From: Myxococcales bacterium
Lineage (GTDB): Bacteria; Myxococcota_A; Polyangia; Polyangiales; DASUME01
DNA length: 64,000 bases
Assembly (NCBI GenBank): GCA_047601445.1
Contig: JASGJH010000001.1
Coordinates: forward strand, 1,664,001-1,728,000
Direction: 5' to 3'
Shown piece after piece: positions 5,998 to 55,416 of the stretch; the stretch's first letter is position 1, and each line of letters begins with the position of its first letter. Under the pieces are notes generated by a model. The model was not told the DNA's origin. It was given only the letters and a program-made list of their open reading frames with translations, and did not search any database. The position numbers and the translations under genes were made by a program.

Positions 5998-6020
5998 GAT
6001 AATGCAAGGCATTTTCAATA
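5998..6020. promoter_or_regulatory. Fur-box-like operator upstream of the PepSY-TM gene
   Basis: GATAATGCAAGGCATTTTCAATA (reverse complement TATTGAAAATGCCTTGCATTATC). Confidence 0.65.
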
Positions 6021-21244: not shown

Positions 21245-21320
21245 CGCGTCCCTCGCCATCGACTTGCCAGAACAGGCCTCCTCCAAAAGAATCGGGGCAC
21301 GCATGAGCGTGGGGAGTCCA

Positions 21321-22683: not shown

Positions 22684-22720
22684 TTGACACGAGCTCCACA
22701 TCGGGTAACCATTTGGTTAC
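22684..22720 (+). promoter_or_regulatory. promoter -35 (TTGACA) and ArsR operator palindrome
   Basis: TTGACA at 22684-22689. Perfect inverted repeat GTAACC-ATTT-GGTTAC at 22705-22720, immediately before the ArsR start. Confidence 0.75.
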
Positions 22721-22723
22721 TCA

Positions 22724-23821: not shown

Positions 23822-24062
23822 CCGCTCACAGGTCCCCTCGCTGGATCTCTGACAGGTAGGTCGACCGCGTGCGCAGCCATCTGAGTTCCAGCTCACAGTC
23901 CGAAGGAACACCGCTGCGCCGCCCGACTGGCTGGTCGGTCGAGCGTCGCGCAAGCGGCGCGTTCGTCGCCACGTGGCGGTCGGCCTCGTCGATGGCGCAC
24001 TGCGCAAAGCCATTCCGTTCCCCATTTCAATCATGGTAATAGTCAAAAGGTTCGGGGGGAAC

Positions 24063-35337: not shown

Positions 35338-35451
35338 GATGGTCTCGCGGGGGTTGACTCACCCTGGGCCTCCGCCGAAGCAGTGACAAACGATCAATCG
35401 TGAACATAGATAAGACATGCTAATTCATGTCGGTTCCCACCCCGGAGCACG

Positions 35452-36387
35452 ATGGCCACCCCAATCTCCGTTCCACTGCATTTTTTGCCTGCTTTCGAGC
35501 TCGCTGCGCAGCACTTGAGTATCCGACGTGCAGCGGAGGAACTGCACCTTACCCCCTCCGCCGTCAGCCAGCAGATCCGTGCATTGGAGGGTGCCCTTGG
35601 CTTCAGCTTGTTTCGACGCGCCACCCGTGCACTTCACCTCACGCCCCTTGGCGCAGAGTACGCCGCCGTGGTCAAGGAGACGCTCGACACCTATCGACAG
35701 GGCAGCGAGCGACTACTCAAGCAACGCGGACAACCCGCCCTGCGCCTGTCGAGTGACTCCTTCATCGCGCACGAAGTCCTGATCCCGCAGCTGCACGCAT
35801 TTCGCGAGGTCCAGCGCGGAGTCGACCTGCGCATCGAGACGAGCAACGCATTGGTCGACTTCGAGCGCGAGGGATTCGACGCTGCAGTGCGCTTCGGCCG
35901 AGGTCCCTGGCCAGGGCTCGCAAGCAGCACGCTGTGCTCGGTGCTAGCAACGCCCGTGTGCGCACCAGGCCTCCTTCCCGGAGGTCGTCTCCCCGCGCGG
36001 GGCAACTGGACGCGTTACCCGCTCATCGCCTTCCGCGACTACCCTGATCCATGGCCGGTGATGTCCAAGCTTCTGGGTGTGGTTTTGCCGCGCGAGCGAC
36101 TGGTCTTCGACAGCTACTTCGCGAGCATTCGGGCAGCCGAGAAAGGACTCGGCATCGCGATCGGCCTCTTTCCCGTCACTTCTGGCCCGGTGCTCGAAGG
36201 AAAATTGATCACGCCGCTCAACGTCCGTGTGCGCACGCACGCACGCTACCACTTCGTTTGCCGCCGCGAAGACGCGGCTCGGCCCGCCCTGGGTACCCTA
36301 CGCAAGTGGCTCAAGGAGCGCTTCGCGGCTCTGCCATTTCTGGAAAATCCGGGCAAGACCGCGGTGCGGACGATGGACGAACCTTGA
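35452..36387 (+). CDS. LysR family regulator (GcvA-like)
   Basis: AAEELHLTPSAVSQQIRALE HTH and D.AVRFG.G.WPGL. Confidence 0.93.
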   Translation: MATPISVPLHFLPAFELAAQHLSIRRAAEELHLTPSAVSQQIRALEGALGFSLFRRATRALHLTPLGAEYAAVVKETLDTYRQGSERLLKQRGQPALRLSSDSFIAHEVLIPQLHAFREVQRGVDLRIETSNALVDFEREGFDAAVRFGRGPWPGLASSTLCSVLATPVCAPGLLPGGRLPARGNWTRYPLIAFRDYPDPWPVMSKLLGVVLPRERLVFDSYFASIRAAEKGLGIAIGLFPVTSGPVLEGKLITPLNVRVRTHARYHFVCRREDAARPALGTLRKWLKERFAALPFLENPGKTAVRTMDEP

Positions 36388-36541: not shown

Positions 36542-37504
36542 TCAGCTTGGGCGAGTTGCCCTGCTCTGGGACACGTTCACGCTTTCGAGATCGAGGTGGT
36601 CGGAGACTTCGCGCTCGCTAGCCCGACACCGCGCAGCAGCGTGAGTGCCCTCGCTCCCTGCTTTGCAAGCCCGTCCTCCGGACAGAGCGTGCCGGCCGCC
36701 AATGGTCTGCTCCGCGCGGTCGCTGCTTGCTCGATGATCGGGCTTGGGCTGCGATGGAGGAAGGCCGAGCATCATGCGCCAGGGCGTGTTCTCGTAATCC
36801 AGGCCGAGCTGCTCATCGAGCGGGACCAGCTCGGGATCAGTGAAGGTGCCGAACGCGCGATCCCACAGCGTGAACAAGAAGGCGTAGTTGGTATTGGTAA
36901 AGCGGACGTCGGCGCTGTGATGCACGAAGTGCACGCGCGGTGTGACGAATAGCTTCTCCAGCATGCCCTGGTAGGGCAGCCGGATGTTGGAGTGGATCCA
37001 GTGCTGATTGCAGAACTGAAACAGGATCAGCGCGGTCAGCCAGGGCTCACTGGTGGGGGGAAACAAGAGTACGGCGAGGGTGTCTGGTAGCGCGGTGAGC
37101 ACGGCGTGCACGGGCGATGACCGCAGCCCCGCGAGCCACCACACGTGCTTCGAGGAGTGATGAAACGCGTGCGCATGCCAGAGCACGTTCGAATGAAGCG
37201 CGCGATGGGTCCAGTAAACCATGAAGTCGGCGCACACCAGGCTCACGGCGAGCACGAGGAGCGGGGGCCACTCCTCCACCATCGCGTACCAGCGCTCGAC
37301 CGCTGCCAAGGACGTCCACCATTCGGAAAGTGGTCCGCTCACCGCCCGGTCGTATCCGGCTCCCAACAACAGGAAGAGGACCACCGCGATCGCGTCGAGC
37401 CGAATCTCGCGCGGTCCAGACTGCCGGCGAAATGGGATCAGCTTGGACACGAGCTGATGCCCCAGACCGATGGCGAAAAACGCGGCGTGGAAAATAGGTC
37501 CCAT
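36542..37504 (-). CDS. sterol desaturase / fatty acid hydroxylase family protein
   Basis: His boxes HRALH, HAFHH, HSN and HFVHH; NYA..FTLWDR.FGT. Confidence 0.9.
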   Translation of the reverse strand: MGPIFHAAFFAIGLGHQLVSKLIPFRRQSGPREIRLDAIAVVLFLLLGAGYDRAVSGPLSEWWTSLAAVERWYAMVEEWPPLLVLAVSLVCADFMVYWTHRALHSNVLWHAHAFHHSSKHVWWLAGLRSSPVHAVLTALPDTLAVLLFPPTSEPWLTALILFQFCNQHWIHSNIRLPYQGMLEKLFVTPRVHFVHHSADVRFTNTNYAFLFTLWDRAFGTFTDPELVPLDEQLGLDYENTPWRMMLGLPPSQPKPDHRASSDRAEQTIGGRHALSGGRACKAGSEGTHAAARCRASEREVSDHLDLESVNVSQSRATRPS

Positions 37505-37533
37505 GTGCGAGCACTCCGTGGAGACAGCGACTG

Positions 37534-38613
37534 CTAAGCGGCCGATGATTCAGCGGGAGAAGGTCTGGGTCGCAGGGAATGGGTGGCCTCTTGCAGGAGC
37601 CGATCGCTTGCGAGGGCGAGCACCATCACGATGCCCGTCAAGCCCAGTACGGCGAGCTCGCCGTGTTGCTGGAAGCCCACGAGTCCCATGCCCCAACAGA
37701 GCAGCACCCACTGGATCACGTACAGCTGGGTGACGCGTTCGCTGGCGCGATACAGCACGTCAGCCAACCGACTCCGCACGAAAAAGGGCGTGAGCCAATG
37801 GGCCAGGCAGAACAACATGCTCGCGCTCCCCATCGACGCGAGCATGCTGCCGAAGCCGCCGTGGAAGAAGTCGCCGTAGTGGGTGGCGGGATCGACCTGA
37901 CAAAGGACGTAGCCGACGACCGCGAGTGCGAGACCGAGTCGCAGCATCACGCGGAGCAGGCGTTCGACGTCGCACCCGGCGTGCTGGTAGAGGCGCCCCA
38001 AGAACACGCCGTAGAGAATCACCGACAGCCAAGGAAAGACGGGGAAGAACACGTTCGAGTCGGCGGCCCACATCAGGTCGCACAGGTAGTCGAGCCCCGC
38101 GATCTGCGGTCGATAGCCGCGCAGCCCGCTGCTCACCAAGGCGACCGCGAGCGACGAAGCCAGCACGAAGTACGGCCGCACCAGGAGACCCCGGAGCAGC
38201 GCCATCAAGCCAGCGGAGATCCCCGCGAGCTGCAAGACGTCTCCAGTGAGGAGCAAGTACAGGAGCCCTGCGGGTTGAATCGGCGGCACGAAGCCGTAGC
38301 TGCGAACGAATGACTCCGGCATGAACTGACCGAAGTACGGAACCAAGAAGCTGAGCAGGTTCATGACGTAACCGAGGGCAAAGAGCGTGGCGCCCCGGCG
38401 TGCCGCCTGCGTCGGCGTCTTCTCCGAGAGGGCGAACGAAAAGCCCATGGCGACAAGGAACATCGCGGCGCCCCTTCCCGCGAAGTGAATCGGCATGCCG
38501 AACGTGGCGCTCGTCTGGACGTCGGGCCGCCCATACATGAGGAGCGTGTGCACGAGCATCATCACGAAGACGCTCGCGCCGCGGCCAAAGTCGATGGCGA
38601 TCACTCGCTGCAT
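37534..38613 (-). CDS. membrane acyltransferase-like protein (HGSNAT / DUF1624 family)
   Basis: R..AIDFGRG..V..M..VH, DVLQLAG and FPVFPW motifs; about 10 TM segments. Confidence 0.8.
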   Translation of the reverse strand: MQRVIAIDFGRGASVFVMMLVHTLLMYGRPDVQTSATFGMPIHFAGRGAAMFLVAMGFSFALSEKTPTQAARRGATLFALGYVMNLLSFLVPYFGQFMPESFVRSYGFVPPIQPAGLLYLLLTGDVLQLAGISAGLMALLRGLLVRPYFVLASSLAVALVSSGLRGYRPQIAGLDYLCDLMWAADSNVFFPVFPWLSVILYGVFLGRLYQHAGCDVERLLRVMLRLGLALAVVGYVLCQVDPATHYGDFFHGGFGSMLASMGSASMLFCLAHWLTPFFVRSRLADVLYRASERVTQLYVIQWVLLCWGMGLVGFQQHGELAVLGLTGIVMVLALASDRLLQEATHSLRPRPSPAESSAA

Positions 38614-38801
38614 GAGACTGCCTCGCAGGGCGGGTTGAGCCGACTACCGGCTCATGGCCGGACCGAGGCCGACGCCTACTCACTCGTGACATTAATGAAC
38701 TCGCGAATCAACTTCATTTACCAACCGAATCGACCATCAACTGATTTTATTAATTTTATTTCCAGTCACATCCGCATCCCGTCGGCGATTCCATGTCACA
38801 A

Positions 38802-38818
38802 TTGAATTTGCATATCGA
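38802..38818. promoter_or_regulatory. Fur-box-like site in the AT-rich divergent promoter of the siderophore cluster
   Basis: TTGAATTTGCATATCGA within an AT-rich island at 38690-38825. Confidence 0.55.
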
Positions 38819-38944
38819 CAACAACCGTGCGAGAGATCGCACGCCTTCCGCCAACAGACCACCTCAAGGCCCGAGGACCGCGCTCCCAGTGCCTCAATGC
38901 AGCCCTCCCAGCATCGCTGGACGGGCTCCGGAGAGCTTGGACGC

Positions 38945-40594
38945 ATGGATTCGCACCACGAGACTGCAGGATCGATCCAGATCGGGTCGCTGCCCCACGA
39001 CGTCGCCAACGATCCACTCACATCGCTGCTGGCCGCGCACGGGCGCGGCGTCGAAGCGGGTACCTCCGCCCACGAACCAAGCGTCGCCCCTGTCTTGGCG
39101 GGCTCACGCGAAGGGCTGACACAGCTCGCGCGGTTGCTCGCACGGGCCACGGACACGGCCCTTTCGGCACGCAGACTGAGCGGGCCGCTGCCTCCGGGAA
39201 GTCCCGGCGAAGTTATGCGCAACGCCGCACTCGCACTAGGGCCGGCCGAGCTGCCGCGCGATGGAATCGGCGCAGAAGCCGCGCTCGAGCGCGTCACACG
39301 CTTGCTCATCGAGTACGGACTCGATTTGACGCACCCACGCGCGGTTGCGCACTTGCAGCCAGCGCCGCTGGCCGTGGCCGTGGTCGCGGATACGCTCGCG
39401 AGTCTTAGCAATGCCTCCCTCGACACCTACGACTCGGGTCCGTCGGGCATCGCCGTGGAGCGCTGGCTGATCGCGACGCTCGCCAGAATGGCGAAGCTCG
39501 GCGCATGTGCAGGCGGCGTGATGACTCCGGGCGGGTCGATGTCCAACCTCCTCGCCCTGCTGCTGGCGCGCGATGCGGCCGCACTGCGGCGCGGTGTAGA
39601 TGCCCGCCGTTCAGGCGTGAGCGCAATGTCGAAGCCGGTGGTCTTCTGCTCGGAGCTCTCGCACTTCTCCGTGCATCGTGCATGCGCCGCGTTGGGCCTC
39701 GGTGAGGACGCGGTCCGGCCCGTCCCCACGGACGACCGTCGGTGCATGCGCGTGGACGCGCTGGCGGCGCTCTTGAGCAGCCTCGACGCGTCTCACACAC
39801 CGATCGCGATCGTGGCCACCGCGGGCACGACCGACTTCGGTTCGGTCGACCCGCTGCATGCCATCGCCGAGCTCGCGCGAGCGCACCGCGTGTGGCTGCA
39901 CGTGGACGCCGCCTACGGCTTCGGGGCGCTCTTCTCGGAGCGCCTGGCCGAAAAGCTTACGGGCCTGGAGCGCGCTGACTCCATCACGCTCGACCTGCAC
40001 AAGCTCGGATGGCAGCCGGCTGCCACCAGTGTGCTCCTGGTGGCAGACACCGCGACCTTCACGGCGCTCGAACGCGAGGTGGCCTATTTGAATCCGAACG
40101 ACGACGCCGAGGCTGGTCTCGACGGCCTGCTCGGACGCAGTCTGCAGACCACCCGCCGGCCCGATGCGCTGAAGGTGGCAGCCACCTTTCTGTCGGAGGG
40201 CCAACGGGGTCTCGGCGACATGGTGGACACCTGCCACGCGCTCGCGCGCCATGCCGAAGAGCGCATTGCGGCGGAGCCCGAGCTCGAGCTGATCGCTCCC
40301 GCGGAGCTCACTACCGTGGTGTTTCGCTATCGCTGCCGACACTGGCTCGGCGACCGCGACCACTTCGAAAACCAAGTGAACGGCGCCTTGCGCCGCCGGC
40401 TCCTGGAGCGTGGCCACGCGCTGATCGGGCGCACGGAAGTCACTCCCACAAGGGCCCAGGCACGTCCGCTCGTCTGCCTCAAGTTCACCTTGCTCAATCC
40501 CACCACCAAGCCCGATGAGCTCGACGAGCTCGTGCAGACCGTTCTGCGGGCGGGCCGCGAAGCCGAGCGCCACCTGGGAGACCACCTCGCATGA
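38945..40594 (+). CDS. group II PLP-dependent decarboxylase (DesA/DfoJ-like diamine-forming)
   Basis: HP…AHL, TPGGSMSN, HFSV, ATAGTTDFGSVDPL, HVDAAYG and DLHK (PLP lysine). Start 38945 or 38897. Confidence 0.93.
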   Translation: MDSHHETAGSIQIGSLPHDVANDPLTSLLAAHGRGVEAGTSAHEPSVAPVLAGSREGLTQLARLLARATDTALSARRLSGPLPPGSPGEVMRNAALALGPAELPRDGIGAEAALERVTRLLIEYGLDLTHPRAVAHLQPAPLAVAVVADTLASLSNASLDTYDSGPSGIAVERWLIATLARMAKLGACAGGVMTPGGSMSNLLALLLARDAAALRRGVDARRSGVSAMSKPVVFCSELSHFSVHRACAALGLGEDAVRPVPTDDRRCMRVDALAALLSSLDASHTPIAIVATAGTTDFGSVDPLHAIAELARAHRVWLHVDAAYGFGALFSERLAEKLTGLERADSITLDLHKLGWQPAATSVLLVADTATFTALEREVAYLNPNDDAEAGLDGLLGRSLQTTRRPDALKVAATFLSEGQRGLGDMVDTCHALARHAEERIAAEPELELIAPAELTTVVFRYRCRHWLGDRDHFENQVNGALRRRLLERGHALIGRTEVTPTRAQARPLVCLKFTLLNPTTKPDELDELVQTVLRAGREAERHLGDHLA

Positions 40595-42042
40595 CCCAAG
40601 CACGCTTCAACGGTCCCAAGGCAGACAGCCGAGTCGAAGCGGGCGGTTCGGCCCGCGAGCAAGCCTACCAGGCGGTCGCCATTGGCTGCGGCCCATTCAA
40701 CCTGGGACTCGCGGCGCTCGCGTCGACGCTACCCGAACTCGATCTCGTGGCGTTCGAGGCGCAGCCCGAGCTGCGCTGGCACCCGGGGCTGATGTTCGAA
40801 GACGCCACCTTCCAGCTCAGCTTTCTCGCCGATCTCGTCACCCTGGTGGATCCCACCCATCCACTCTCGTTCCTCGCTTACCTGCGCGACGTCGATCGGA
40901 TGTATCCGTTCTTCATCCGCGAGCGCTTCCACCCTACCCGACGCGAGTACGAGGACTACCTGCGTTGGGTGGCCGGAAAGCTGCCCAGCGTTCGCTTCGG
41001 CCACCGCGTGGAGGAGGTGCGCTGGGACCGGAGTCTTTTCCTGTTCGTGGTGCACGTCGTCGGCCCCGCCGGCCGCACGCGCGTGCTGGCAAAAGACCTC
41101 GTCATCGGCATCGGCACCGAGCCGTGCTTGCCCGAAGCGCTCACAGCTCTGCCTCGCAACCGCTGCGTGCATTCAGGGCACTACCTGCACGAACTCCCGC
41201 AGATCACCCGGGCTCGGCATCTCACGGTGGTGGGCTCGGGCCAGTCGGCCGCGGAGTGTGCGCTCGACGCGCTGCGGCGCAACCTCGATGGCGGTGCGCC
41301 CCTGTCATGGATCACGCGCACCCCCGCGTTTGCGCCGCTCGATTACACGAAGCTCGTCCTCGAAATGACCACGCCTGCCTACGTCCGCTACTTCCACGGA
41401 TTGCCGCAGGACACCAAGGACCGCCTCGTACGCGAGCAGTGGCAGCACTACAAAGGGATCTCCGTCGACACCCTCGAAGCCATCCACGACACGCTCTATC
41501 AGCGCGAGCTCAGGACAGGCCTCGAACCTGTGGAGCTACGCAGCGGAGTGGCCGTGGAAGGGGCGCGGCTCGACGGGTCGGGGGACGTGATTCTGCGCTG
41601 TCGCCACCGCGACACCAACACCACATTCGAGCACAGGACGTCTTTGGTGGTGGCGGCCACGGGATACCGTGAGCGCTCGCCGGCCTTCCTCGAACCGCTC
41701 GAGCCCCTGCTGATGCGCGACGACCTGGGCCGCTACCGGGTCCGGCTCGACTACTCGATCGAGCTCGACTCCACCATCACCGGACGCATCTTCGTGGCCA
41801 ACGCCGAGCTGCATACCCACGGCGTCGCCACGCCGGACCTCGGCATGTGCGCGTTCCGCAACGCCACCATCCTCAACACGATCACGGGACGCGAGGTGCA
41901 CCGTCTACCTCGGCGCACAGCCTTCAGCAGCTTCGCCCTGCCCGCGCCCGAGCCGGTGCGTGAGCGAGAGCAAGCCGTGCGGCGCCAGGGTGCCGCCGTG
42001 GTCGGCCACGCCGGGCTCGACTTACCACAGCTGGAGCGTTGA
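40591..42042 (+). CDS. lysine/diamine N-hydroxylase (DesB/IucD/AlcA family)
   Basis: IGCGPFNLGLA, WHPGLM, FLADLVTL.DPT, GSGQSAAE, YKGIS and ATGY motifs. Confidence 0.95.
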   Translation: MTQARFNGPKADSRVEAGGSAREQAYQAVAIGCGPFNLGLAALASTLPELDLVAFEAQPELRWHPGLMFEDATFQLSFLADLVTLVDPTHPLSFLAYLRDVDRMYPFFIRERFHPTRREYEDYLRWVAGKLPSVRFGHRVEEVRWDRSLFLFVVHVVGPAGRTRVLAKDLVIGIGTEPCLPEALTALPRNRCVHSGHYLHELPQITRARHLTVVGSGQSAAECALDALRRNLDGGAPLSWITRTPAFAPLDYTKLVLEMTTPAYVRYFHGLPQDTKDRLVREQWQHYKGISVDTLEAIHDTLYQRELRTGLEPVELRSGVAVEGARLDGSGDVILRCRHRDTNTTFEHRTSLVVAATGYRERSPAFLEPLEPLLMRDDLGRYRVRLDYSIELDSTITGRIFVANAELHTHGVATPDLGMCAFRNATILNTITGREVHRLPRRTAFSSFALPAPEPVREREQAVRRQGAAVVGHAGLDLPQLER

Positions 42043-42896
42043 CCATGACTCAGCAGCATTTCCACGTGGTGATCGTGGGCGCGGGACCCGCAGGCCTCGG
42101 AGCCGGTCTGTTCACAGCGCGCTACGGCCTGCGAACGCTCCTCTTCGATTGCGGCAAGAGCGTGCTCAAGCAGTGCGCCTACCTGGACAACTACCTCGGT
42201 TTTCCCGGCGGCATCGACGCCGACCAGTTCCTGGCATCGGCGCGCGCCCACGTGCTGGAAGCAGGCTGCCAGATCGCGCGCCGACGCGTGGTCTCCGTGC
42301 AGCGGGCGCCGCACGGGCCAGCGCGCTTCGTGGTCACGACGAATACCGGAGAGTGTGCCCTGGCTGATCGCGTGATCGCCGCGAGCGGCTTCGTCGCCCC
42401 TTACTTGCTCGGGCTCGAAGCCCAGTTGGTCGACTCAGAAGGCGAACTGCGGCCGGGCGCGGTAGCGAACCATGGCCGCACCGCGGTGGAGGGACTGTAT
42501 TTGGCGGGCTGTCTCTCGGGCGCCGAGAGCCAGGCGATGATCAGCGCTGGACACGCCGCCCAGGTCGCCCTCGAACTGGTGCGCGACGTGCGCCAAGAGG
42601 GAGGCCTGTGGGAAGCCCTCGCACGCTACCTCGACTGGCAGGTACGGCGGGGCACGTACGACCGTGAAAGCTGGGTCGAACGCGTACGCGCGTACTTCGA
42701 ACCACTGGTGCGCGCCGAGTCCGAGCACGATCGCACTGCCTTCGAGGCACAGCTCGCACGCTGGATCTCGGCCAAGCGCGCCCAGCAACTCGACACGAGC
42801 GAGGTCAAGCAACGCAGGGGCCGTGCGCGCGAGCTGCGTGGTGCAGTCTCCCCTCACACCGCAAGCCCGGTACAGACCGGACTGGAGGGATCGTGA
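42039..42896 (+). CDS. truncated thioredoxin-reductase-like FAD-binding protein
   Basis: GAGPAG, NYLGFPGGI and T.VEGLYLAG motifs. No CxxC and no recognisable NADPH domain. Confidence 0.75.
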   Translation: MTMTQQHFHVVIVGAGPAGLGAGLFTARYGLRTLLFDCGKSVLKQCAYLDNYLGFPGGIDADQFLASARAHVLEAGCQIARRRVVSVQRAPHGPARFVVTTNTGECALADRVIAASGFVAPYLLGLEAQLVDSEGELRPGAVANHGRTAVEGLYLAGCLSGAESQAMISAGHAAQVALELVRDVRQEGGLWEALARYLDWQVRRGTYDRESWVERVRAYFEPLVRAESEHDRTAFEAQLARWISAKRAQQLDTSEVKQRRGRARELRGAVSPHTASPVQTGLEGS

Positions 42897-44125
42897 CCCT
42901 CAAGCTTTTTCTGCTGCTCATGACGGCCATCGCGGTGGTGTGCGACTCGATGCTGCACCCCTTCTATCCCCAGTACTTCGCCAGCGTGTTCGGCGTGACG
43001 GACGCCCGTCACGTCGGGGCCTACATCGCCAGCTGCAGCCTGACCGTGCTGCTTACGTTCCCGCTCTGGGCGCTGATCGCGAAGCGAGTGAGCGTCCTTC
43101 GGCTCCTGATCGGGACTCAGCTCGGCACCTGCTTGTTGAGCCTCGTCTGCTACGGCACGCGCTCGCTCCTCGCATTCTGGGTCCTCTCCCTGTGCATGAT
43201 GGTGTGCAAGGCCAGCTATCTCCTGATCTATCCGTACGTGATGAGCTTGGAGCCCAAGGAGAACCATGTCAGCACCATCAGCCTGCTCGCGTTCGTGGTG
43301 TACTTCGGGAACATCTTGGCGGCCCTTGCGAGCGGTGCGCTCTTCGAGTTCGTCGACCCGCGCTCGCTGTTCGTTGCCATGGCGGCAGGCGACGCGCTTC
43401 AAATCGCCCTGTGCTGCTTCATGTTGCGTGCGGCCGAATCGCACCCAGCCCCGTCGTCGAGCAAGGACGAAACCCGGATCCCGACGCGCTACTTGCTGAA
43501 GCTCGGGCTCGTGATGTTCGTGCTCTACTTCAGCGCCTACATCAGCGAGCCTTTTTTTGCACAGTTCTGGGAGACGGTCGCTGCCCTCGACAACAAGTTC
43601 GTGGCCGGCAGTGTGTTCGCCATCCCGGGTGCGGCCGCACTGCTCGGGCTCTTCTTGAACGCTTCCGCAAGCGACGAGGAGGCCACCCCCTACTCCGGAA
43701 TCGCGCCCGCCATCGCGCTCGGAGTGGCCTCGCTGGCGATGCAAGCGAGTGGGCTTCCGCTCGCCGTGGTGGCCGGGCGCTTCCTGTACGGTTGGGCACT
43801 CTTCCAATCGATGGTGCGGCTCGATGGACTGCTATTCCGCTACAGCACCCCCGAGACCTACGCCGTCGATTTCAGCCAAGCCAACCTCTTTCAAGGGCTC
43901 GGCGTCCTGGTCGCCTCGAGCTGTGCAGGTTCGCTCGTCGAGGCCTTCGGGGTGCGGTTGCCCTTTGGCGTGGCCGCCCTCGGTTTCGTGATCGGCGGCC
44001 TCTTGTACCTGAGCCTCTTTCGCTCGGAGCTGCGCGGAGGCGCAGAGGCCTCGCTCGACTCGCGGGCAGAACCGCCCGCTTCGACTTCTCAGGTGACCGT
44101 CGACGAAGGGAGCAGTGCAGCGTGA
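42893..44125 (+). CDS. MFS transporter (candidate siderophore exporter)
   Basis: About 12 hydrophobic segments; GTGA-coupled at both ends within the operon. Confidence 0.85.
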   Translation: MTLKLFLLLMTAIAVVCDSMLHPFYPQYFASVFGVTDARHVGAYIASCSLTVLLTFPLWALIAKRVSVLRLLIGTQLGTCLLSLVCYGTRSLLAFWVLSLCMMVCKASYLLIYPYVMSLEPKENHVSTISLLAFVVYFGNILAALASGALFEFVDPRSLFVAMAAGDALQIALCCFMLRAAESHPAPSSSKDETRIPTRYLLKLGLVMFVLYFSAYISEPFFAQFWETVAALDNKFVAGSVFAIPGAAALLGLFLNASASDEEATPYSGIAPAIALGVASLAMQASGLPLAVVAGRFLYGWALFQSMVRLDGLLFRYSTPETYAVDFSQANLFQGLGVLVASSCAGSLVEAFGVRLPFGVAALGFVIGGLLYLSLFRSELRGGAEASLDSRAEPPASTSQVTVDEGSSAA

Positions 44126-46011
44126 AGACCGAACCTTTGTCCCCACTCCAAGTGACCGAACACCTCGAGCCCGAGGTGTGGTCCAAGGTCAATCGGCTAG
44201 TCATCGCCAAGGCGATCAGCGAGTTCGCTCACGAGCTGCTGATCGCGCCGCTCCTGGTGCGGATGGAAGGAGACTGGGGGCACTACGTGCTCACCACGGA
44301 CCAGCCCGACGTGGAGTATCGCTTCCGCGCCCGCGTCCTGAGCCTCGATCACTGGTGGATCGACAAGCTGTCTTTGAAGAAGGTCCAGCGCGGCTCCGCC
44401 GCCTCCCTCGACGCCCTCTGGTTCATGGTCGAGCTCCGAACCATGCTCGGGCTCTCGGACGCAGTGCTCCCTGAGTATCTCGAAGAGCTCGCCTGCACGC
44501 TCTATGGAGCCGCCCACAAGCACGCACGACCGGGGCCGAGCGCCGCCGTCCTGTGCCGCGGAACGTTCCAGGAGATCGAGACCGCCATGCTCGAAGGCCA
44601 CCCCATCTTCGTGGCCAACAACGCTCGCCTCGGCTTCAACGCTCGAGACTACCCTGCCTACGCGCCAGAGCTGGGGAAACCCATCTCGCTGACCTGGCTT
44701 GCGGTGCGCAAGGAGCTGCTCGCCTTCTCCTGTGTCGATGCGAGCGATTCTGCCCGTGCGCAAGACCCGCACCGCCTCGACTACACCGAGCTCATGGAGC
44801 AGGAGCTGGACCCGAAGACGCGGGACGCCTTCCACGGTGTGCTCGCTGCGCGCGGACTCGACACCGTGGACTATCGCCTGATGCCCGTCCACCCCTGGCA
44901 ATGGACCGATTGCGTCGCCCAGCTCTTCGCGGCCGACCTGGCGCGCGCCGACCTCGTCTACCTGGGTTCAGGCAGCGATCACTACCTCGCGCAGCAGTCG
45001 ATCCGCACACTCTACAACATCAGCCAGCCGCACAAGCGCTACGTAAAGACCTCGCTAAACATCCTGAACATGGGATTCACGCGCGGCATTCCGGCCTCCA
45101 TCGTGCGGGGCGCGGGCGTCAACGAGTGGGTCGAAGAGTTGGTGCGCGGGGATCCCTACCTCCATGCCCACGGCTTCCGCGTGATCCGCGAAGTGGCTTT
45201 CATGGCCTACCGCCACCGTCACTACGAGCGCGTCGTCAGTGAGCGCTCCTCCACTTACAAGGAGATGATGGGGGCCGTCTTCCGCGAGAACCCGGCGCGC
45301 CATCTCGCGACGGGTCAACGCTTGATGACGATGGCCGCGCTCATGTACATCGATCGCGACGGTGCGGCCCTGCTCCCGGCGCTGATCGAGGCCTCCGGAC
45401 TCGGCGTCGCCGAATGGCTGCGCCGCTACCTGCGCTGCTACCTGAAGCCCCTCCTGCACTGTTTCTACCAGCATCACCTGACGTTCTCTCCACACTGTGA
45501 AAACGTCATCCTGGTCCTCGAGCACCACGCGCCCGTGCGCCTCATCATCAAGGACCTCGCCGAAGACATCGGCGTGCTCAACCCGGACTTCGAACTTCCA
45601 CCGAAGGTACGAGGGCTCGCGCTCAAGGTTCCAGAGGATGTCATGACGCTCTCGATCTTCACGGATGCGTTCGACTGCGTGTTCCGCTTCCTGGCCCAGA
45701 TTCTCCTCGAACACGAGAACTTCTCCAACGAGGCCTTCTGGAGCGTCGTGGCGGCCTCCATCCACGAATACCAGTCGGAGCACCCTCACCTCGCCGAGAA
45801 GTTCCGCCGCTACGACCTCTTTGCCCCCACCTTCCTCCGCAACTGCCTCAATCGCCTGCAGCTCACCAACAACCGGATGATGGTCGACCTCAACGCACCC
45901 GAGCCGGTGGACAGCCTGCAGTTCGTTGGCACCCTGCTGAACCCGATCACTCACTTGAAAACGCGACGGGCCCTCCCCGTTCGAGCCGGAGAGACCCACG
46001 ATGCACTCTGA
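44122..46011 (+). CDS. IucA/IucC family NIS siderophore synthetase (DesD/AlcC-like)
   Basis: GTG 44122. KAISEFAHE, EGHP.FVAN..R.GF, PVHPWQW, AQQSIRT, YVK…LNMGF.RG and CLNRLQL motifs. Confidence 0.93.
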   Translation: MKTEPLSPLQVTEHLEPEVWSKVNRLVIAKAISEFAHELLIAPLLVRMEGDWGHYVLTTDQPDVEYRFRARVLSLDHWWIDKLSLKKVQRGSAASLDALWFMVELRTMLGLSDAVLPEYLEELACTLYGAAHKHARPGPSAAVLCRGTFQEIETAMLEGHPIFVANNARLGFNARDYPAYAPELGKPISLTWLAVRKELLAFSCVDASDSARAQDPHRLDYTELMEQELDPKTRDAFHGVLAARGLDTVDYRLMPVHPWQWTDCVAQLFAADLARADLVYLGSGSDHYLAQQSIRTLYNISQPHKRYVKTSLNILNMGFTRGIPASIVRGAGVNEWVEELVRGDPYLHAHGFRVIREVAFMAYRHRHYERVVSERSSTYKEMMGAVFRENPARHLATGQRLMTMAALMYIDRDGAALLPALIEASGLGVAEWLRRYLRCYLKPLLHCFYQHHLTFSPHCENVILVLEHHAPVRLIIKDLAEDIGVLNPDFELPPKVRGLALKVPEDVMTLSIFTDAFDCVFRFLAQILLEHENFSNEAFWSVVAASIHEYQSEHPHLAEKFRRYDLFAPTFLRNCLNRLQLTNNRMMVDLNAPEPVDSLQFVGTLLNPITHLKTRRALPVRAGETHDAL

Positions 46012-48413
46012 ACCCCTGGTCGCGCCAAAAGGCGAGTCCGCCGCGCTGACGGGCGGCGTCGTATTCGCCCAGCACCATCCTGTTTTCGGACCCGTGCAGA
46101 TTCGGCGCATGCGCAATCCGGAGGACATTCCGACGGTTCACGCCTGGGTTGGCCGAGAGTACGCGCGCTTCTGGGGCATGGTCGGGTACTCGTCCGAGCA
46201 GGTGGCCGCCGGCTATCGCGAGATCGCTCGCAACGCAGACGTCTTCCTCGGCTTTCAGGGGGACACGCCCATTTTCCTCATCGAATCCTACGACCCAAGA
46301 CGCGACCCCGTCGGGGGTCACTACGAGGTGCTGCCGGGCGACCGCGGCATGCACGTATTGATGGCTCCACCTGACCGACGCGTGAAGGGCTTCAGCTGGG
46401 CGGTCTTCTCGCTCGTGATGGACTTTCTTTTCGCCGATCCCGGCACGAAGCGCATCGTGGTGGAGCCGGACATCCGCAATCGCCGTATCCACGCGCTCAA
46501 CCGGCGCGCAGGCTTCCGCTACCAGAAGATGATCGAGCTTGGAAGCAAGACCGCCCACTTGGCATTCTGCACGCGCGCTCACTATCTGGAAGCCCTGGCA
46601 ACGCGAGAGGATACCCGGCTCGCCTACCCGCGCGCGCCTACGGCTCCCCATGGGCACGTCCAGCCAGAAGCCTGGCAGGCCGCCAACCGCGCACTGATCT
46701 GCAAGGCGATCTCCGAGTTTGCACACGAGGCGTTGCTCGAGCCCGTGCGAGTCGCCGAGGACGGACCGTGGGGGGTCTACGTACTGGAAGACTCCGAGCA
46801 TACCGTCAGCTATCGCTTTCGCGCACGCATGCTCGCCCTCGACCACTGGTGGATTCGAGCGTAGTTCGCTCGAGAAGCGCGCGGAACACGCCCCCAGCGA
46901 ACTCGACGCGCTCGCGTTCTTCGTGGAGTTCAACCTGCAGCTCGGCATGACCTCCGCGTTGCTACCGGTGTACTTGCAGGAGATCTCCGCCACGCTCTAT
47001 GCAGCGGCCTACAAGCACGAGCGCCAGGTGTTGAGCGCGGCCGACCTGGTCCACGCGGACTTCCAGGAGATCGAGACGTCCATGGCAGAGGGGCACCCAT
47101 GCTTCGTCGCCAACAGCGGACGCGTCGGCTTCGACGCCGATGACTACATCGCCTTTGCACCGGAAGCGGGCACCGATATCCGCATCGTTTGGCTCGCCGC
47201 CCACCGGCAGCACACGCAGTTCACCTCATCGTCCGATCTTTCCTATGAACGGCTCCTCCTGGAGGAGCTCGGTCCGGACACGCTGGCCGACTTCGCGCAG
47301 CGCCTCACGGGCCTGGGCCTCGTGGCCAGCGACTACGTCTATGTGCCGGTTCACCCTTGGCAGTGGTTCAACAAGCTGGTGTTCTTGTTCGCCACCGACC
47401 TGGCCAAGCGCGACCTCGTGTGCCTCGGCTACGGTGAGGATCGCTATCGGGCCCAGCAGTCCATCCGCACCCTGTTCAACCTGAGCCACCCCCGGAAGCG
47501 CTACGTCAAGATGGCGCTGTCGGTGCTCAACATGGGGTTCATGCGCGGATTGTCGGCCGACTACATGCGGGCCACGCCGGCGATCAACGACTGGGTTCAT
47601 CAGGTCGTCGAGAACGATCCTTGTTTCGCCGAGCTCGGCTTTGGCATCCTGCGCGAAGAAGCTGCCGTGGGCTACCGCAGTCCGCTGCTGCAAGCGGCCG
47701 TGCCCAGCGCGAGCCCATACCGCAAGATGCTCGCTGCGCTTTGGCGGGAGAGTCCGACGCAGCTGCTCGGCCCGGGCCGTCGGCTGATGACGATGGCCGC
47801 GCTCCTGCATCGCGATCGCGACGGGCGGGCGCTCTTGCCCCAGCTCATCAAGGCGTCCGGAGTGGACGTCGACGCGTGGCTCGCAGCGTACCTACGCTGC
47901 TATCTCGCGCCGCTACTTCACTGCCTGTACCGCTACGAGCTCGCCTTCATGCCGCACGGAGAAAACATCATTCTGCTGCTGGAGGAGAACCTGCCCATCA
48001 AGGCTCTGCTGAAGGACATCGCGGAGGAGGCCGTCGTGATGGACCCGGAAGCTGAGCTTCCCCCCGAGGTCGCGCGGCTGCGCGCTCCGGTTCCCGAGGA
48101 CGTGAAGGTGCTGTCCATCTTCACGGACGTATTCGACTGCTTCTTTCGCTACCTCGTTCAGATCCTGCTCGAGGAGGCGGGCTACCCCGAGGATCGCTTC
48201 TGGGAACGCGTGGCGGACTGCATCCGCGTCTACCAGGCAAGCCATCCCGAGCTCGCCGCGAAGTTCCAGCGCTACGACGTATTCGCAGCCACGTTCCAGC
48301 GGTCGTGCTTGAACCGTCTTCAACTGCGCAACAATCGCCAGCTGATCGATCTGACCGACCCTGCCAAGAACCTGCAGTTCGTGGGCACGCTGGCAAACCC
48401 AGTCGCGAGCTAA
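46001..48413 (+). CDS. acyltransferase (AlcB/DesC) fused to an IucA/IucC synthetase (DfoC-like), apparent +1 frameshift at ~46854
   Basis: YARFWGM, GDRGMH and VVEPD.RN GNAT motifs, then KAISEFAHE. Removing one T from GATTC 46852-46856 gives LDHWWIERSSLEK (paralog: LDHWWIDKLSLKK) and joins the 46719-48413 frame with HPWQW and PHGEN. Confidence 0.9.
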
Positions 48414-48419
48414 TCCCAG

Positions 48420-49328
48420 ATGGACGACATGGCGTCGCGACTGGAATCGACCCTCGATGCTATCGAAGGGGTGTCGCTGCATTTTCTCTACACGGTGATC
48501 GCCCTCGAGTTGTTGGTCTTGTGGGTGCGGAAGAAGTGGGGCGCAAAGAAAGAGAGCTGGGCGAGCCTCGTCGGATTCAACCTCGGCACGGTGCCCTACG
48601 ACTTGTTCTTTGCGGCAATGCAGTACGAACTCATGGTTTGGATGTACGACCACGCCCGGCTGCTGACGCTCGGGGACGCCTGGTACGTTTGGGTCTTGGC
48701 GTTCGTGCTCTACGACCTGGCCTGGTGGCTGGTGCACTTCGCGGCTCACAAAAATCGCTTCTTGTGGTGCATCCACGGTGCGCATCACACGCCGTCGGAG
48801 ATGAACATGAGCGTGGCCATCCGTGGCTCACTATTGGATTTCGTTCAGTACGTGCACTTGATGGTCTGGCTCCCGATACTGGGCTTCCATCCATTCATGG
48901 TCCTGATCGTCAACGTGACCGCCAGGCTCTACGGCCTGTTCACGCACGTACACAAGGACTTCGCACCGCGCACGCCGATGCTGGATGGCTTCCTCATCAC
49001 TCCCTCGTTGCACCGAGTGCATCACGCGAAGAATCCCGTCTACATCGACACCAACTACGCCAACATGTTTTCGCTCTGGGACCGGGTGTTCGGGACACTG
49101 CAGTTGGAGGTGGCGGACGAGGAACCCGTGTTCGGCGTCACCGACGAAGGCGTGAATGCAGAGAGCGTGATCAGCAGTCAGCTCGGAATCTGGAAGAGCA
49201 TGCTCGCAGACATGCGGGCCACACCGCGGTGGATGGACAAGATCAAGATTCCGTTCATGCCGCCGGACTGGCATCCGCGTGCAGCAACGAACGCGCGGGT
49301 GATTCGCGGGACAGCCCTACGGTCCTAG
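48420..49328 (+). CDS. sterol desaturase / alkylglycerol monooxygenase-like protein
   Basis: HFAAH, HGAHH and HRVHH boxes; YID.NYA..F.LWDRVFGT. Starts 7 nt after the synthetase stop. Confidence 0.9.
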   Translation: MDDMASRLESTLDAIEGVSLHFLYTVIALELLVLWVRKKWGAKKESWASLVGFNLGTVPYDLFFAAMQYELMVWMYDHARLLTLGDAWYVWVLAFVLYDLAWWLVHFAAHKNRFLWCIHGAHHTPSEMNMSVAIRGSLLDFVQYVHLMVWLPILGFHPFMVLIVNVTARLYGLFTHVHKDFAPRTPMLDGFLITPSLHRVHHAKNPVYIDTNYANMFSLWDRVFGTLQLEVADEEPVFGVTDEGVNAESVISSQLGIWKSMLADMRATPRWMDKIKIPFMPPDWHPRAATNARVIRGTALRS

Positions 49329-52296: not shown

Positions 52297-54819
52297 TCAG
52301 TGACCGCCGAGTTTCGCCTTGAAGAGATCGATTAGCGGCTGATTGATGATCCCATCGGTGGGCCACGTCGTGTTTGGATTGCTGCGGTAAACCGCGAAGT
52401 TCGGCTCGTGGTAGGCGTGGAACGTGAAGTGAACGTTGCGCGCCAGCAAGGTATCGAAGACGTCGTTCACCCAGGTTATCCCGCCGCGGTTGTCCTCGTA
52501 GCAGTGGTAGATGACGCCGAACTCGCCCAGGTACACCGGCACCTTGTTCAGAGCCGCCCAATTCAGCGTGTCGTCGATCTCCGCAGCGAGGGCGGCCTGG
52601 TTCCTGTGGGCAACCGCTCCTCCCTTCCAGAACTCGAGGCGCGCCATGGCTCGCGGGCACTGCGGGCGATTCTCTTCGGGATGCGGACGGCACATGTCCT
52701 GGCCCCATACAGCGTCGCCGCGCATCCACACCTCCACGCTGTAGGTATGGCCGGGCTTCGGCGTGAAGAAATGGGCCTGGTTGGTGAGGACCGCCCAGTG
52801 ATCGCTGTTGGCTATCGCGACGGATGTCGAGCCGCCGTGGGGCCCCGTCGATTCGGCGCTCTTGTCCCCGCTCGCTCCGGCCGGCTTCCACAGATCGAAG
52901 CCGGCGATCGTCTCGAGCGGATCGACCACGACGTTACGCACGAAGGCGCCGTTCGGTGCGAACTCCTTGACCACGAGGTCGTCGAAGTAGACCTTGCCAC
53001 CCGCGCGCTCGGCGGTGAGAGCGGGCCGCATCATCGTGGTAGTCGAAGCGTCCCACGCAAACCTCGCCGAGGTGTAGAGCTGCCATCCCGTGGTCCCAGA
53101 CGGAAGCTGCGGGGGCGGCGGGTTATCTCCGACGCCGATCAGCCCGGACTGTTCGTTCAACACGGGAAAATCGGCAGGGTAGCCGCGACCTTCCCCGAAG
53201 GAGGTCCAGTCCGCGAATTGGTGCGTGTACTCGATGGGCGAATAGAAATGGAACTGGTAGAGGATGTTGTCATCCTGCACCATGAAGAAGCTACCGCCGT
53301 TGATGGCCCGCTCGACGACGATGACATGCAGCGGATCCTCGACCCGGATGGCATTCACGATCCGCTGCGCGAGGTTGGGCCAATCCGCGGGGTTGGCCGG
53401 GGTCGCCTCGTTCAGGATGTCGTAGCCAGCGATCGTGGGCTCGTTCCGGTAGCGCCGGGCAATGGCCGCCCACATATCGATCAGGCGCTGCTGGGTGTTC
53501 ACGTTCGTCCAGAGCTCGGTGCCGCCGCCCGTCGATTGATAGCCACCCTGGGGGACGTGCACGTTCAAGACTAGATAGACGCCGTGGGCGCGGGCCCACT
53601 CGATGTTCTTGTCGATCCAGTCCCAACCGCTCTTCTTGTAGCGGCGTGGCAGCCCCGTGGTCCCTGGGGCGGGGTCGTCTTCGAGGAGCTGGTAGTTCAG
53701 GTAGAAGCGGACGGCGTTCATTCCCCACTGAGAGATGCGCGCGAAGTCGTCCTCGTTGTGGTGAAAAGCCGGCGGTTGAGTCGGCAAGCCCCACACGCTG
53801 TTCCCGAAGGCGACGCCGCGCAGCATGGTCTTCTGGCCGGCATCGTTCACGAGATCCTGGAGCTGGCGCTTCAACATCCGCGGAGAGCCCACGCGCCCGA
53901 TGCGATTCTGGCGACGCCCCACGTCCTCGTAGTGCTGGATGGCCCAGCGCCAGGAGGTGCCGTACTGAGCCGCCACGTCCGCATAGAGTTGCGAGTACTC
54001 CTTGACGTGAAAATCAGGCGCAGAGGGGCGCCCCTCGACCATGCCGGTGTCGAAGAAATGATGCAGCCCCAGCAGGTTCGTCGGATTCGCGGCGCGAAGC
54101 TCCGGGTTGATGCCGAGGTAGTACGCAGAGTGGATCGCGTAGCTCGCACGACGCCCTTCACCCACGCCGTGAACGAGCCAGTGCATCGTGGCGCCGTAGT
54201 CGTCGTAGTTCTCGGCGATGTCCGGGTTGTATTTCTTGTACTCGTCCAGATTGAAGAGCGGTGAGGTGAGGACGACTCGTCCGACGCGCCTCTCGATGGG
54301 GTAGCCGCGCGTGAGGTAGTGGTTTGCGGCCGCCACGTAGTTGATGCCGAAGGCCTTCTGGAGATCGGCGTAGATGCGAAGATACTCCTTCACGTAGAAA
54401 TCGTCGGCCGACGCGCGCCCCTCTTTCACGCCAGCGACCACGTAGTGGTTGACGTGCTGCGGCCAGCTCGCTGAGCCAGTGCCGTAGGCGGTGACCAAAT
54501 CCGGATTCAGCCGGGCGTAGGCCTGGACGTCGAAGGTCGAAGAGGCGCGTCGCCCCTCGCCAATGCCGGTCGTCCACCAGTGGGATTGGAGCTGCGCATC
54601 CGTCATCGAAGCCAGATCCGCATTTCTGGTTCGGTAATACTTCACGTTGAAGACGAACGGGCTGAACGCCTTCGCCTGATCGAGCGCGCTCTCGACACGG
54701 CCGACTTCTTCGAGGGGCTCGCTCGTCTCTTCATCCGGGCCGCAGCTACCAGCGGCGACGAGCACGACAACCAATAGGACTCGAGCGAGTCCCTCACGGG
54801 CGCGTTGGGTTTGGCTCAT
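52297..54819 (-). CDS. GH5 glycoside hydrolase lipoprotein with six N-terminal repeats and an inserted CBM-like domain
   Basis: AAGSC lipobox; GMNAVR, LNVH, ILNE (acid/base), FHFY and LGEFG (nucleophile). Start refined to 54819. Confidence 0.88.
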   Translation of the reverse strand: MSQTQRAREGLARVLLVVVLVAAGSCGPDEETSEPLEEVGRVESALDQAKAFSPFVFNVKYYRTRNADLASMTDAQLQSHWWTTGIGEGRRASSTFDVQAYARLNPDLVTAYGTGSASWPQHVNHYVVAGVKEGRASADDFYVKEYLRIYADLQKAFGINYVAAANHYLTRGYPIERRVGRVVLTSPLFNLDEYKKYNPDIAENYDDYGATMHWLVHGVGEGRRASYAIHSAYYLGINPELRAANPTNLLGLHHFFDTGMVEGRPSAPDFHVKEYSQLYADVAAQYGTSWRWAIQHYEDVGRRQNRIGRVGSPRMLKRQLQDLVNDAGQKTMLRGVAFGNSVWGLPTQPPAFHHNEDDFARISQWGMNAVRFYLNYQLLEDDPAPGTTGLPRRYKKSGWDWIDKNIEWARAHGVYLVLNVHVPQGGYQSTGGGTELWTNVNTQQRLIDMWAAIARRYRNEPTIAGYDILNEATPANPADWPNLAQRIVNAIRVEDPLHVIVVERAINGGSFFMVQDDNILYQFHFYSPIEYTHQFADWTSFGEGRGYPADFPVLNEQSGLIGVGDNPPPPQLPSGTTGWQLYTSARFAWDASTTTMMRPALTAERAGGKVYFDDLVVKEFAPNGAFVRNVVVDPLETIAGFDLWKPAGASGDKSAESTGPHGGSTSVAIANSDHWAVLTNQAHFFTPKPGHTYSVEVWMRGDAVWGQDMCRPHPEENRPQCPRAMARLEFWKGGAVAHRNQAALAAEIDDTLNWAALNKVPVYLGEFGVIYHCYEDNRGGITWVNDVFDTLLARNVHFTFHAYHEPNFAVYRSNPNTTWPTDGIINQPLIDLFKAKLGGH

Positions 54820-55416
54820 TCCGCACGCGTAACAGGAGTGCATGCTGCTTGGGCGTAGCGTCACCCCGTATGACCGTGAGGTCCCACGGCCACGCTCGAC
54901 GCCATCCGTATCGACACGCGTGCCCAAATGGGGACGAACCAGGGCGCGCGCGATCCAGCGAAGCGCCGTGATGATGCCGCGCTCGAAGTTCTCACGCTGT
55001 TCGCGGTGCCCTGAGTTGACCCGGACGCGGAGGCACGAGCTCTACCTGCGCTTCCCCCGATCGAGTTCACGGTCCGCTCGAAGCAATCATGCACGACGCA
55101 CACCCTTGGCTCCCTGCGCGTACAGGCAGAGCCCTTCGGGTCGCACTGCTTTGGCGAGGCAGGCCACACTCGCTAGCGAGGTGCGCGCGGGGCCGGTTCC
55201 TTGCGCGCAAAACTTTACGAATCGCTGTGATGGCGATCACCAAGCCGCGCTAACACTTCCCGCTCAATAACGACAAAATGGGATCCGTGAAGCTCTCGAA
55301 TCCAGGACGCGCCTGCATCTCCCCCTACATTGGCGCCGCGGATCCGCAATCGAAATTGCGTGATTGACGCTCACTTTCTCAATAAGCTGACCAACAGTGA
55401 CTAGGAAGGACCCACG

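Follow-up and report, generated by a model that had tools for sequence, protein, structure and literature searches.

Gene content and layout of the cluster

We analyzed a siderophore biosynthesis cluster at positions 36542-49328 of a 64,000-nucleotide stretch of DNA (the window, G000:C1:1664001-1728000) from a Myxococcales bacterium whose genome is a 9.50-Mb single contig, 98.7% complete and 5.4% contaminated. A preliminary description had placed this cluster in a myxobacterium-like genome and had described it as a desferrioxamine-type nonribosomal peptide synthetase (NRPS)-independent siderophore (NIS) cluster with two synthetases and atypical tailoring genes. The myxobacterial host was borne out by four MYXO-CTERM matches above cut-off as compared to none in 14 controls, and the nearest named orthologues of the cluster synthetases came from a Polyangiaceae metagenome-assembled genome (MAG).

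Open reading frame (ORF) and profile searches recovered all nine genes with the families named earlier. Seven genes lie on the plus strand, beginning with a pyridoxal phosphate-dependent decarboxylase resembling DesA/DfoJ (38897-40594; PF00282, 184 bits), a Lys/Orn N-oxygenase family diamine N-hydroxylase of the DesB/DfoA type (40591-42042; PF13434, 356 bits) and a flavoprotein (Pyr_redox_2, 42039-42896) that consists of an FAD domain only and was assigned to a haloarchaeal-type family by its homologue set, structural model and gene context. These are followed by a major facilitator superfamily (MFS) exporter in the BsbE/TenE position (42893-44125; PF07690), a stand-alone type C NIS synthetase (synthetase 1, 44122-46011; IucA_IucC), a frame-split DfoC-like fusion of Acetyltransf_8 and IucA_IucC domains (46001-48413; PF13523 and PF04183) whose synthetase part is referred to as synthetase 2, and FAH2, a membrane di-iron hydroxylase/desaturase with its His boxes present (48420-49328; PF04116). 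The translational coupling proposed for this operon held, with the seven genes joined by four 4-base overlaps, one 11-base overlap and one 6-base gap. On the minus strand lie an HGSNAT_cat/DUF1624 membrane acyltransferase of the Tenacibaculum hp2 type (37534-38613; PF07786) and, 29 bases downstream of it, FAH1, the second PF04116 FA_hydroxylase protein (36542-37504). The two arms diverge from an AT-rich control region (38690-38820) with one moderate Fur-like box at 38798-38816. GC content of the cluster was the same as that of its flanks. As the cluster DNA was absent from all nine same-genus genomes searched (72-99% complete) and PF04183 genes were found in just 3 of 60 relatives, we consider the cluster accessory.

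The biosynthetic core and its two type C synthetases

The best PDB match of the decarboxylase was DfoJ (5o5c, E 2.5e-84), and the enzyme was 58-71% identical to those of other Myxococcota clusters and 36-42% identical to enterobacterial and Streptomyces enzymes. It is predicted to convert lysine or ornithine to a diamine, and its true start may lie further downstream. Among PDB sequences the hydroxylase matched 6xbb, DfoA (5o8p) and the putrescine N-hydroxylase 7us3 with 309-343 bits as compared to at most 159 bits for amino-acid hydroxylases, which assigns it to the diamine type. No Dat scored above cut-off in the genome and the diaminopropane route was dropped, making cadaverine or putrescine the likelier substrate. 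The GNAT domain matched the DfoC N-domain best (E 5.6e-50); a genome-wide GNAT search at E<=1e-8 gave a single match, meaning that no second free acyltransferase (C2) was found. The MFS protein was 34-48% identical to MFS genes of other desferrioxamine-type clusters. A decarboxylase, a diamine N-hydroxylase, a GNAT acyltransferase and a type C synthetase, the set that defines DesABCD/DfoJAC-type systems, are thus encoded in one operon.

Both synthetases were of type C, scoring 597-633 bits against DfoC, DesD and AlcC in a PDB sequence search as compared to 252 bits for IucC and 30 for IucA, and DfoC was the best PDB match for both the synthetase and the GNAT domain. They were the only two PF04183 matches in the genome, which contained no type A citrate synthetase. 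Groove residues were mapped from the SgDesD residue list given in the accessible portion of PMC9356276. The ATP/Mg residues of DesD (S275, R277, K291, R303, R370, H440, E442, N443, D460) and the amine anchor D497 were conserved in both enzymes, and H153, which sits after the break in the fusion, was present in synthetase 2. Synthetase 2 has the canonical DesD groove (M438, S556, E464). In synthetase 1 the groove is altered, with S456, C459, D482 and N574 in place of DesD M438, G441, E464 and S556; every phosphate and Mg ligand except E464 (now D482) is retained and D497 is kept. This signature was shared by only one of 106 other synthetases from the loci examined, a 57% identical orthologue in the Polyangiaceae locus L036, and a comparable T-P-H-x-E-N / KDLAED / NCLNR pattern was seen in 4 of 150 representative synthetases. 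Conservation of the groove changes at this distance suggests selection on synthetase 1.

In a quick tree of 40 rows each cluster synthetase paired with its L036 counterpart (SH-aLRT 100 and 98), indicating that the two-enzyme design is conserved. The Bacteroidota enzymes of L227, L229 and L230 formed a separate clade (97) apart from the cluster synthetases in the same tree, which included no formal clade test. We infer a division of labor in which synthetase 1 would use a different acid substrate. Two other arrangements were seen among the loci examined. Three Chitinophaga loci (L007, L014 and L025, 10001-13630) carry two tandem type C synthetases with D497 changed to Q in all six, and the Myxococcota loci L258 and L262 combine a distant 25% identical synthetase and a 38-39% identical one with a different groove with GNAT, hydroxylase and MFS genes and an MxcH-type receptor; the latter two are possibly nannochelin-like citrate-hydroxamate systems.

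The acyltransferase-synthetase fusion had been described as a single open frame. We found that the GNAT frame (46001-46864) enters the synthetase N-terminal domain and stops, with the remainder in another frame. The intact 834-aa orthologue (L036 1892-4396) aligned as residues 43-300 and 303-822 in two frames, placing the break between 46855 and 46863. The GNAT domain (residues 41-180) is complete ahead of the break, GC content at third codon positions (GC3) is high in both halves (0.79 and 0.85), the second half retains all active-site residues and no other lesion was seen within the cluster. The background of such breaks was surveyed by comparing 608 coding frames from two same-genus genomes to this assembly, which gave 358 usable matches covering 153,277 aa. 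Frame splits were found in 14 rows among the 358 genes compared, the affected genes being 60-90% conserved in a genome of the same genus; about nine were clearly mid-gene and about five lay near N-termini and may be artefacts. This rate of approximately one split per 33-50 kb affects about 3-4% of the assembly's genes and predicts 0.25-0.4 splits in the 12.8-kb cluster. Because similar splits recur in the assembly, the cluster is otherwise unlesioned and the active site after the break is intact, we regard an assembly error as the probable cause.

A real frameshift, in which synthetase 2 is lost while a 287-aa GNAT product still works and either the ABCD pathway runs on synthetase 1 alone or the cluster is decaying, was judged distinctly unlikely. 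The break is present in the sequence outside any long homopolymer, it follows the end of the GNAT domain and fewer than one error was expected in the cluster, all of which fit a true lesion; the mid-gene splits elsewhere in the assembly, the high GC3 of both halves, the complete active site and the otherwise undamaged cluster do not. Were the break real, the GNAT domain would still be whole and synthetase 1 would complete the ABCD set. Programmed frameshifting was dropped since there is no slippery run at the site, and a looser first survey (5 of 117) gave way to the stricter version because stop-to-stop queries had apparently produced three of the five splits. Judged from translations alone, further apparent frameshifts occur in the window at 15226-16896, 21264-22572 and 22684-23859, involving a peroxiredoxin-like/FAD oxidoreductase region, a saccharopine-dehydrogenase-like gene in two frames and an SRPBCC-like gene, and these fit residual assembly errors.

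Accessory enzymes, the flavoprotein and candidate iron uptake genes

The DUF1624 acyltransferase was surveyed in 301 Bacteroidota genomes and 251 genomes of Simiduia's order, from which 16 new loci were fetched. Ten of the 16 homologues lay in DesD-type clusters, one lay between a GNAT and an N-hydroxylase gene and five were elsewhere; at E<=1e-35 the homologue was beside a DesD-type synthetase in 10 of 12 cases. Homologues were also present in L032, L042 and L062 and in the Myxococcota loci L256 and L257, in each of which DUF1624 accompanies two synthetases. Across Bacteroidota, Gammaproteobacteria and Myxococcota the HGSNAT subfamily goes along with DesD-type clusters, and because of this co-occurrence, L256 and L257 included, we assign DUF1624 to the cluster. 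The preliminary description had proposed checking whether DUF1624 and the desaturases co-occur in homologous clusters. DUF1624 did, and the desaturases were found beside none of the other myxobacterial clusters examined.

FAH2 was linked to the cluster by its 6-base spacing from the fusion and by the precedent of the ten operon of Tenacibaculum maritimum. DUF1624 and FAH2 are 34% and 40% identical to the genes in corresponding positions of the ten-like locus L229, the latter in the hp4 position, and FAH2 is likewise 40% identical to the 306-aa T. maritimum desaturase P0213. Two Tenacibaculum homologues of FAH2 are labelled alkylglycerol monooxygenase. Several observations weigh against a shared role in the cluster: FAH2 falls outside the hp4 subclade, with its closest homologues at 55-80% identity, its homologues are missing beside the other myxobacterial clusters, as noted above, and neither DUF1624 nor a desaturase stands alongside the L036 genes on their cut contigs. 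No solved relative of FAH2 was found by sequence, and among 221 genomes of G637's family the one close homologue was that of the ten-like cluster, which is not enough to count co-occurrence. FAH1 resembles FAH2 at 31% over 140 aa, and 60 relatives yielded a single homologue of it at E<=1e-30, from a genome without an NIS match; the inclusion of FAH1 in the cluster was not upheld, with its position behind DUF1624 the one point in favor. In the literature searched only the ten paper ties HGSNAT to such clusters and none pairs desferrioxamine with a fatty acid hydroxylase.

We consider it unlikely that the cluster makes ordinary desferrioxamines or bisucaberin-type dimers, with one synthetase redundant or idle and with DUF1624 and the desaturases leaving the main product unchanged. 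In favor of such a product, synthetase 2 has the canonical DesD/DfoC groove. In the parts of the report available for T. mesophilum, BsbD2 by itself made plain bisucaberin B and the BsbD1 portion showed no activity (PMC6164419), a result that also weighs against a division of labor between two synthetases, and the available text of the ten paper shows no function for hp2 or hp4 (PMC12276236). Against an ordinary product stand the ATP/Mg residues of synthetase 1, all present, the groove changes that it shares with its 57% identical orthologue and the association of the HGSNAT subfamily with DesD-type clusters across three groups.

The third operon gene had been called a TrxB-like flavoprotein. 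Its product did not pass as a thioredoxin reductase, as TIGR01292 scored 64 bits against a cut-off of 343 and over residues 9-119 only, and the protein has neither an NADPH domain nor a CxxC motif. The structural model (pLDDT 85.9) showed a TrxR-type FAD domain like that of TTHA0370 followed by a helical tail. TTHA0370 (PDB 2cvj; TM 0.83 over target) likewise has no NADPH domain and differs in lacking the 90-aa helical tail. Structural matches also included HlmI (Z 23.4), GliT (22.2) and IruO (19.7). By sequence, 93 homologues were found at E<=1.2e-31 before a drop to 5e-13, and the named ones were nearly all haloarchaeal, as were all 47 plasmid-record matches among the matches listed and the four nearest Atlas clusters. 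In a FastTree phylogeny with short TTHA0370-like proteins as the root, this flavoprotein belonged to a single clade (1.0) of 27 non-acidic members nested among acidic ones, which is consistent with one transfer out of haloarchaea, although the root is a distant one. Among 401 genomes of its own phylum a full-length flavoprotein was found in G000 only, the other 10 matches being short TTHA0370-like proteins. A 51% identical flavoprotein occupies the same slot after the N-hydroxylase in a Haliangium MAG (L005), and none was found in five other Myxococcota genomes with related clusters. A metagenome context scan returned mostly ordinary thioredoxin reductases, with at most 1 of 80 loci family-like, and was not used.

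The haloarchaeal context was viewed at 14 of the 47 plasmid loci, chosen non-randomly from the top 30 rows and including two picked with an ABC gene already visible. In 10 of the 14 the flavoprotein homologue abuts a substrate-binding protein or iron ABC permease gene (PF01497/FecCD), often with a stop-start overlap, and all eight binding proteins tested were PF01497. Siderophore biosynthesis genes were annotated in none of the 14 loci viewed. In related siderophore clusters a FhuF-like gene (L032, L042, L062, L234-236, L238) or a nitroreductase gene (L229, L230, ten hp1) holds the place of the flavoprotein. Among the haloarchaeal loci, L247, L249 and L250 have a HEAT-repeat protein alongside the binding protein and flavoprotein, and in L249 the flavoprotein occurs twice, each time behind a binding protein.

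The flavoprotein had implicitly been counted among the tailoring genes. Its surroundings in the 10 haloarchaeal loci, chosen as described, and in two myxobacterial clusters resemble iron utilization, making an iron-utilization enzyme more likely than a tailoring one. We hold with slightly better than even confidence that it acts as a reductase. Three points count against this assignment: four of the 14 loci had no ABC neighbor, PF01497 also covers cobalamin and other metal complexes, and with no NAD(P)H domain the electron donor is missing. To our knowledge no function has been assigned to the haloarchaeal family, and no paper on this family was evident from titles and the beginnings of abstracts. 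A two-domain relative, IruO, acts as a reductase of Fe(III)-hydroxamate siderophores according to the part of the source available (PMC10294844). IruO/FNR1 of S. aureus and B. cereus shares the TrxR-type FAD fold, and IruO, at 17% identity, differs in having an NADPH domain; as the flavoprotein is not built on the two-domain FNR plan, it would at most work like IruO. A role as tailoring oxidase or reductase with the siderophore as substrate, similar to that of the dithiol oxidases HlmI and GliT that share the FAD fold, appears very unlikely. The gene is coupled inside the biosynthetic operon both here and in L005, and the HlmI and GliT Z values exceed that of IruO, as this alternative would have it. 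However, these scores come from the common FAD domain alone (residues 2-194), the CxxC motif is lacking, the haloarchaeal homologues sit in uptake operons, with no siderophore biosynthesis gene annotated at the 14 loci viewed, and the gene was not found in the five other Myxococcota genomes.

The control region had been described as an AT-rich, Fur-like promoter. The AT-richness was confirmed, as 63 A+T in 100 bases was reached by 4 of 100,000 genome windows, and the Fur-like part was reduced to a single moderate site. With a Fur matrix derived from five sites of two other genomes and scanned over 9.5 Mb, the box at 38798 ranked among the top 65 positions, and it fits the E. coli consensus at no more than 11 of 19 positions, a moderate match that weighs against Fur repression of the operon. 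The genome does encode Fur. The region gave no sigma-70 promoter, and promoter and terminator scans were at chance level. Separate from the Fur-like box, an imperfect direct repeat (ATCAACTTCATTT / ATCAACTGATTTT) at 38708-38755 may serve another regulator, perhaps a LysR protein like the one encoded nearby at 35452-36387, a gene with its own inverted repeat at 35414-35431.

A candidate uptake module lies on the minus strand 30 kb upstream of the cluster (1-6007) and comprises a PepSY gene (4628-6007; PF03929), an MxcH-family TonB receptor (1068-3491) and a lipoprotein (<1-1045). Strong Fur-like boxes were found there at 3571, 3798 and 5998, with 5998 ranking third and 3798 eighth in 9.5 Mb. 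The receptor scored 1075 bits against NF038079 (cut-off 925) and is the genome's only member of its family. It is 53% identical to the receptor directly 3' of the fusion synthetase in L036, and receptors adjoin hydroxamate clusters in L005, L036, L254, L259 and L260. From these sequence relationships the module is likely cognate to the cluster product. Against this, MxcH-family receptors were present in 7 of 9 same-genus genomes without the cluster, making the link non-specific. The best genome-wide match for a 2,3-dihydroxybenzoate (DHB)-AMP ligase (MxcE) scored 222 against a TIGR02275 cut-off of 724, and with no ligase above cut-off there was no sign of myxochelin, although NRPS genes were not separately searched. 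As the genome has no such ligase and the receptor sits beside hydroxamate clusters, the NCBI name MxcH is not ligand-specific. Elsewhere in the window a GH5 cellulase-family protein (52297-54927, minus strand) has an N-terminal repeat region of about 250 aa without assignment.

Proposed pathway and relation to known systems

Gene identities, coupling, active-site residues and co-occurrence are the observations from which we infer substrates, products and regulation. With a little more confidence than doubt, we read the cluster as an accessory, likely Fur-repressed operon for linear, probably end-acylated desferrioxamine-type hydroxamates that is ten/bsb-like and independently assembled. The decarboxylase would supply a diamine, likely cadaverine or putrescine, which the flavin monooxygenase would N-hydroxylate and the GNAT domain would acylate using succinyl- or another acyl-CoA. 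Synthetase 2, if intact in vivo, would oligomerize the monomers, and synthetase 1 with its altered groove would likely take a different acid or cap the chain. N-acylation of the free terminal amine likely falls to the HGSNAT-like membrane enzyme, FAH2 may oxidize the acyl tail or chain end and the MFS protein would export the product. The ferric complex likely returns via the MxcH-family receptor/PepSY module, and the haloarchaeal-type flavoprotein likely aids iron release.

A bolder combination is speculative and, in our estimate, rather doubtful. Here the flavoprotein would represent a new class of ferrisiderophore reductase, an FAD domain with no NAD(P)H domain and an external donor, widespread in haloarchaeal uptake operons, passed once into bacteria and filling the FhuF/nitroreductase slot. 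Alongside it, a type C synthetase subfamily with a polar groove, a transmembrane acyltransferase of the HGSNAT kind and a di-iron enzyme resembling alkylglycerol monooxygenase would produce a desferrioxamine-type family, the first in myxobacteria, with a new monomer or end group. On this reading FAH2 and hp4 might also cleave the N-alkyl chain, which would give the terminal hydroxamic acid of tenacibactins K-M and of T. maritimum compounds 10-16. Taken together with at least eight related Myxococcota loci, the cluster points to a desferrioxamine-type branch that has been overlooked. The different pocket of the synthetase 1 subfamily could be useful for chelator engineering, the siderophore-linked HGSNAT subfamily is a candidate for terminal N-acylation in the ten pathway and the gene neighborhood of the flavoprotein suggests a way in which haloarchaea free siderophore-bound iron.

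Related Myxococcota loci share the decarboxylase-hydroxylase module at 50-71% identity (L036/L186 from a Polyangiaceae MAG, L005 from a Haliangium MAG, L254, L256, L257 and L259-L261). Orthologues of both synthetases and an unbroken fusion occur in L036, the flavoprotein occurs in L005, and L256 and L257 combine DUF1624 with two synthetases; none carries the whole set and none has an adjacent desaturase. Such loci were rare but recurrent: 6 genomes out of 201 in the L036 family had one (four DesD-like), as did several of 301 in the L005 class. The Haliangium locus also encodes a penicillin-acylase-like protein (weak PvdQ match) fused to a GNAT domain of the siderophore type and preceded by Fur-like boxes of its own (L005 16865-19651), a possible acyl-tail editing enzyme, and an integrase/transposase-like gene about 2.4 kb upstream of the cluster (L005 695-2767).

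Catecholates and citrate-hydroxamates are given as the two main myxobacterial siderophore classes in the consulted part of PMC10127202. Nannochelin and myxochelin are known siderophores from the same phylum, and an MxcH-family receptor is encoded here, but the genome has neither a type A citrate synthetase nor a DHB-AMP ligase. No desferrioxamine-type myxobacterial cluster was found in the literature searched, which leaves out most subscription papers and supplements. Compared to Erwinia DfoJAC and Streptomyces DesABCD (desferrioxamine E/B), the cluster has the same four core activities and the same fusion architecture; it adds a synthetase, the MFS, flavoprotein and HGSNAT genes and a desaturase, and its decarboxylase and hydroxylase are about 40% identical to theirs. 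Fulvivirgamide is reportedly made by a two-step acylated desferrioxamine system.

The closest precedent is the ten operon, which the available text of two reports describes as co-transcribed genes for a decarboxylase, hydroxylase, MFS protein, C-D fusion, C2, D2, nitroreductase, HGSNAT protein, lipase and sterol desaturase (PMC12276236; PMC12224167). In the portion of the first report consulted, the order is tenABECDC2D2hp1-4, hp2 and hp4 are given no function by the authors, and the operon accounts for 20 compounds resembling desferrioxamine, which carry tails of C4-C16:1 and fall into three series by end group (PMC12276236). A pair of synthetases together with a C-D fusion was already on record for bsb, as far as that source was available (PMC6164419). 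Known products of ten and bsb comprise acyl-desferrioxamines, tenacibactin-like compounds and bisucaberin B. The cluster shares with ten/bsb the decarboxylase, N-hydroxylase, MFS protein, C-D fusion plus second type C synthetase, HGSNAT protein and sterol desaturase, with hp2 and hp4 counterparts present as homologues. Since ten, with nearly the same kinds of genes, makes 20 acylated compounds, the acylated or modified desferrioxamine proposed in the preliminary description is plausible; the same precedent removes most of its novelty, as amphiphilic acyl-desferrioxamines are a product class already known from such a gene set, which limits the surprise. The accessory genes called atypical are likewise mostly precedented in ten, leaving the variant synthetase, the flavoprotein and the host as departures. 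The ten operon comes near to being an identical characterized gene set and differs in its second free acyltransferase C2, nitroreductase hp1 and lipase hp3, none of which is among the ORFs of 36542-49328. In place of the nitroreductase and lipase the cluster has the flavoprotein, its DUF1624 gene is divergent, its stand-alone synthetase precedes the fusion and its synthetases group apart from the ten-like L229 pair. What sets it apart from known systems is the myxobacterial host, the synthetase 1 groove and the haloarchaeal-type flavoprotein.

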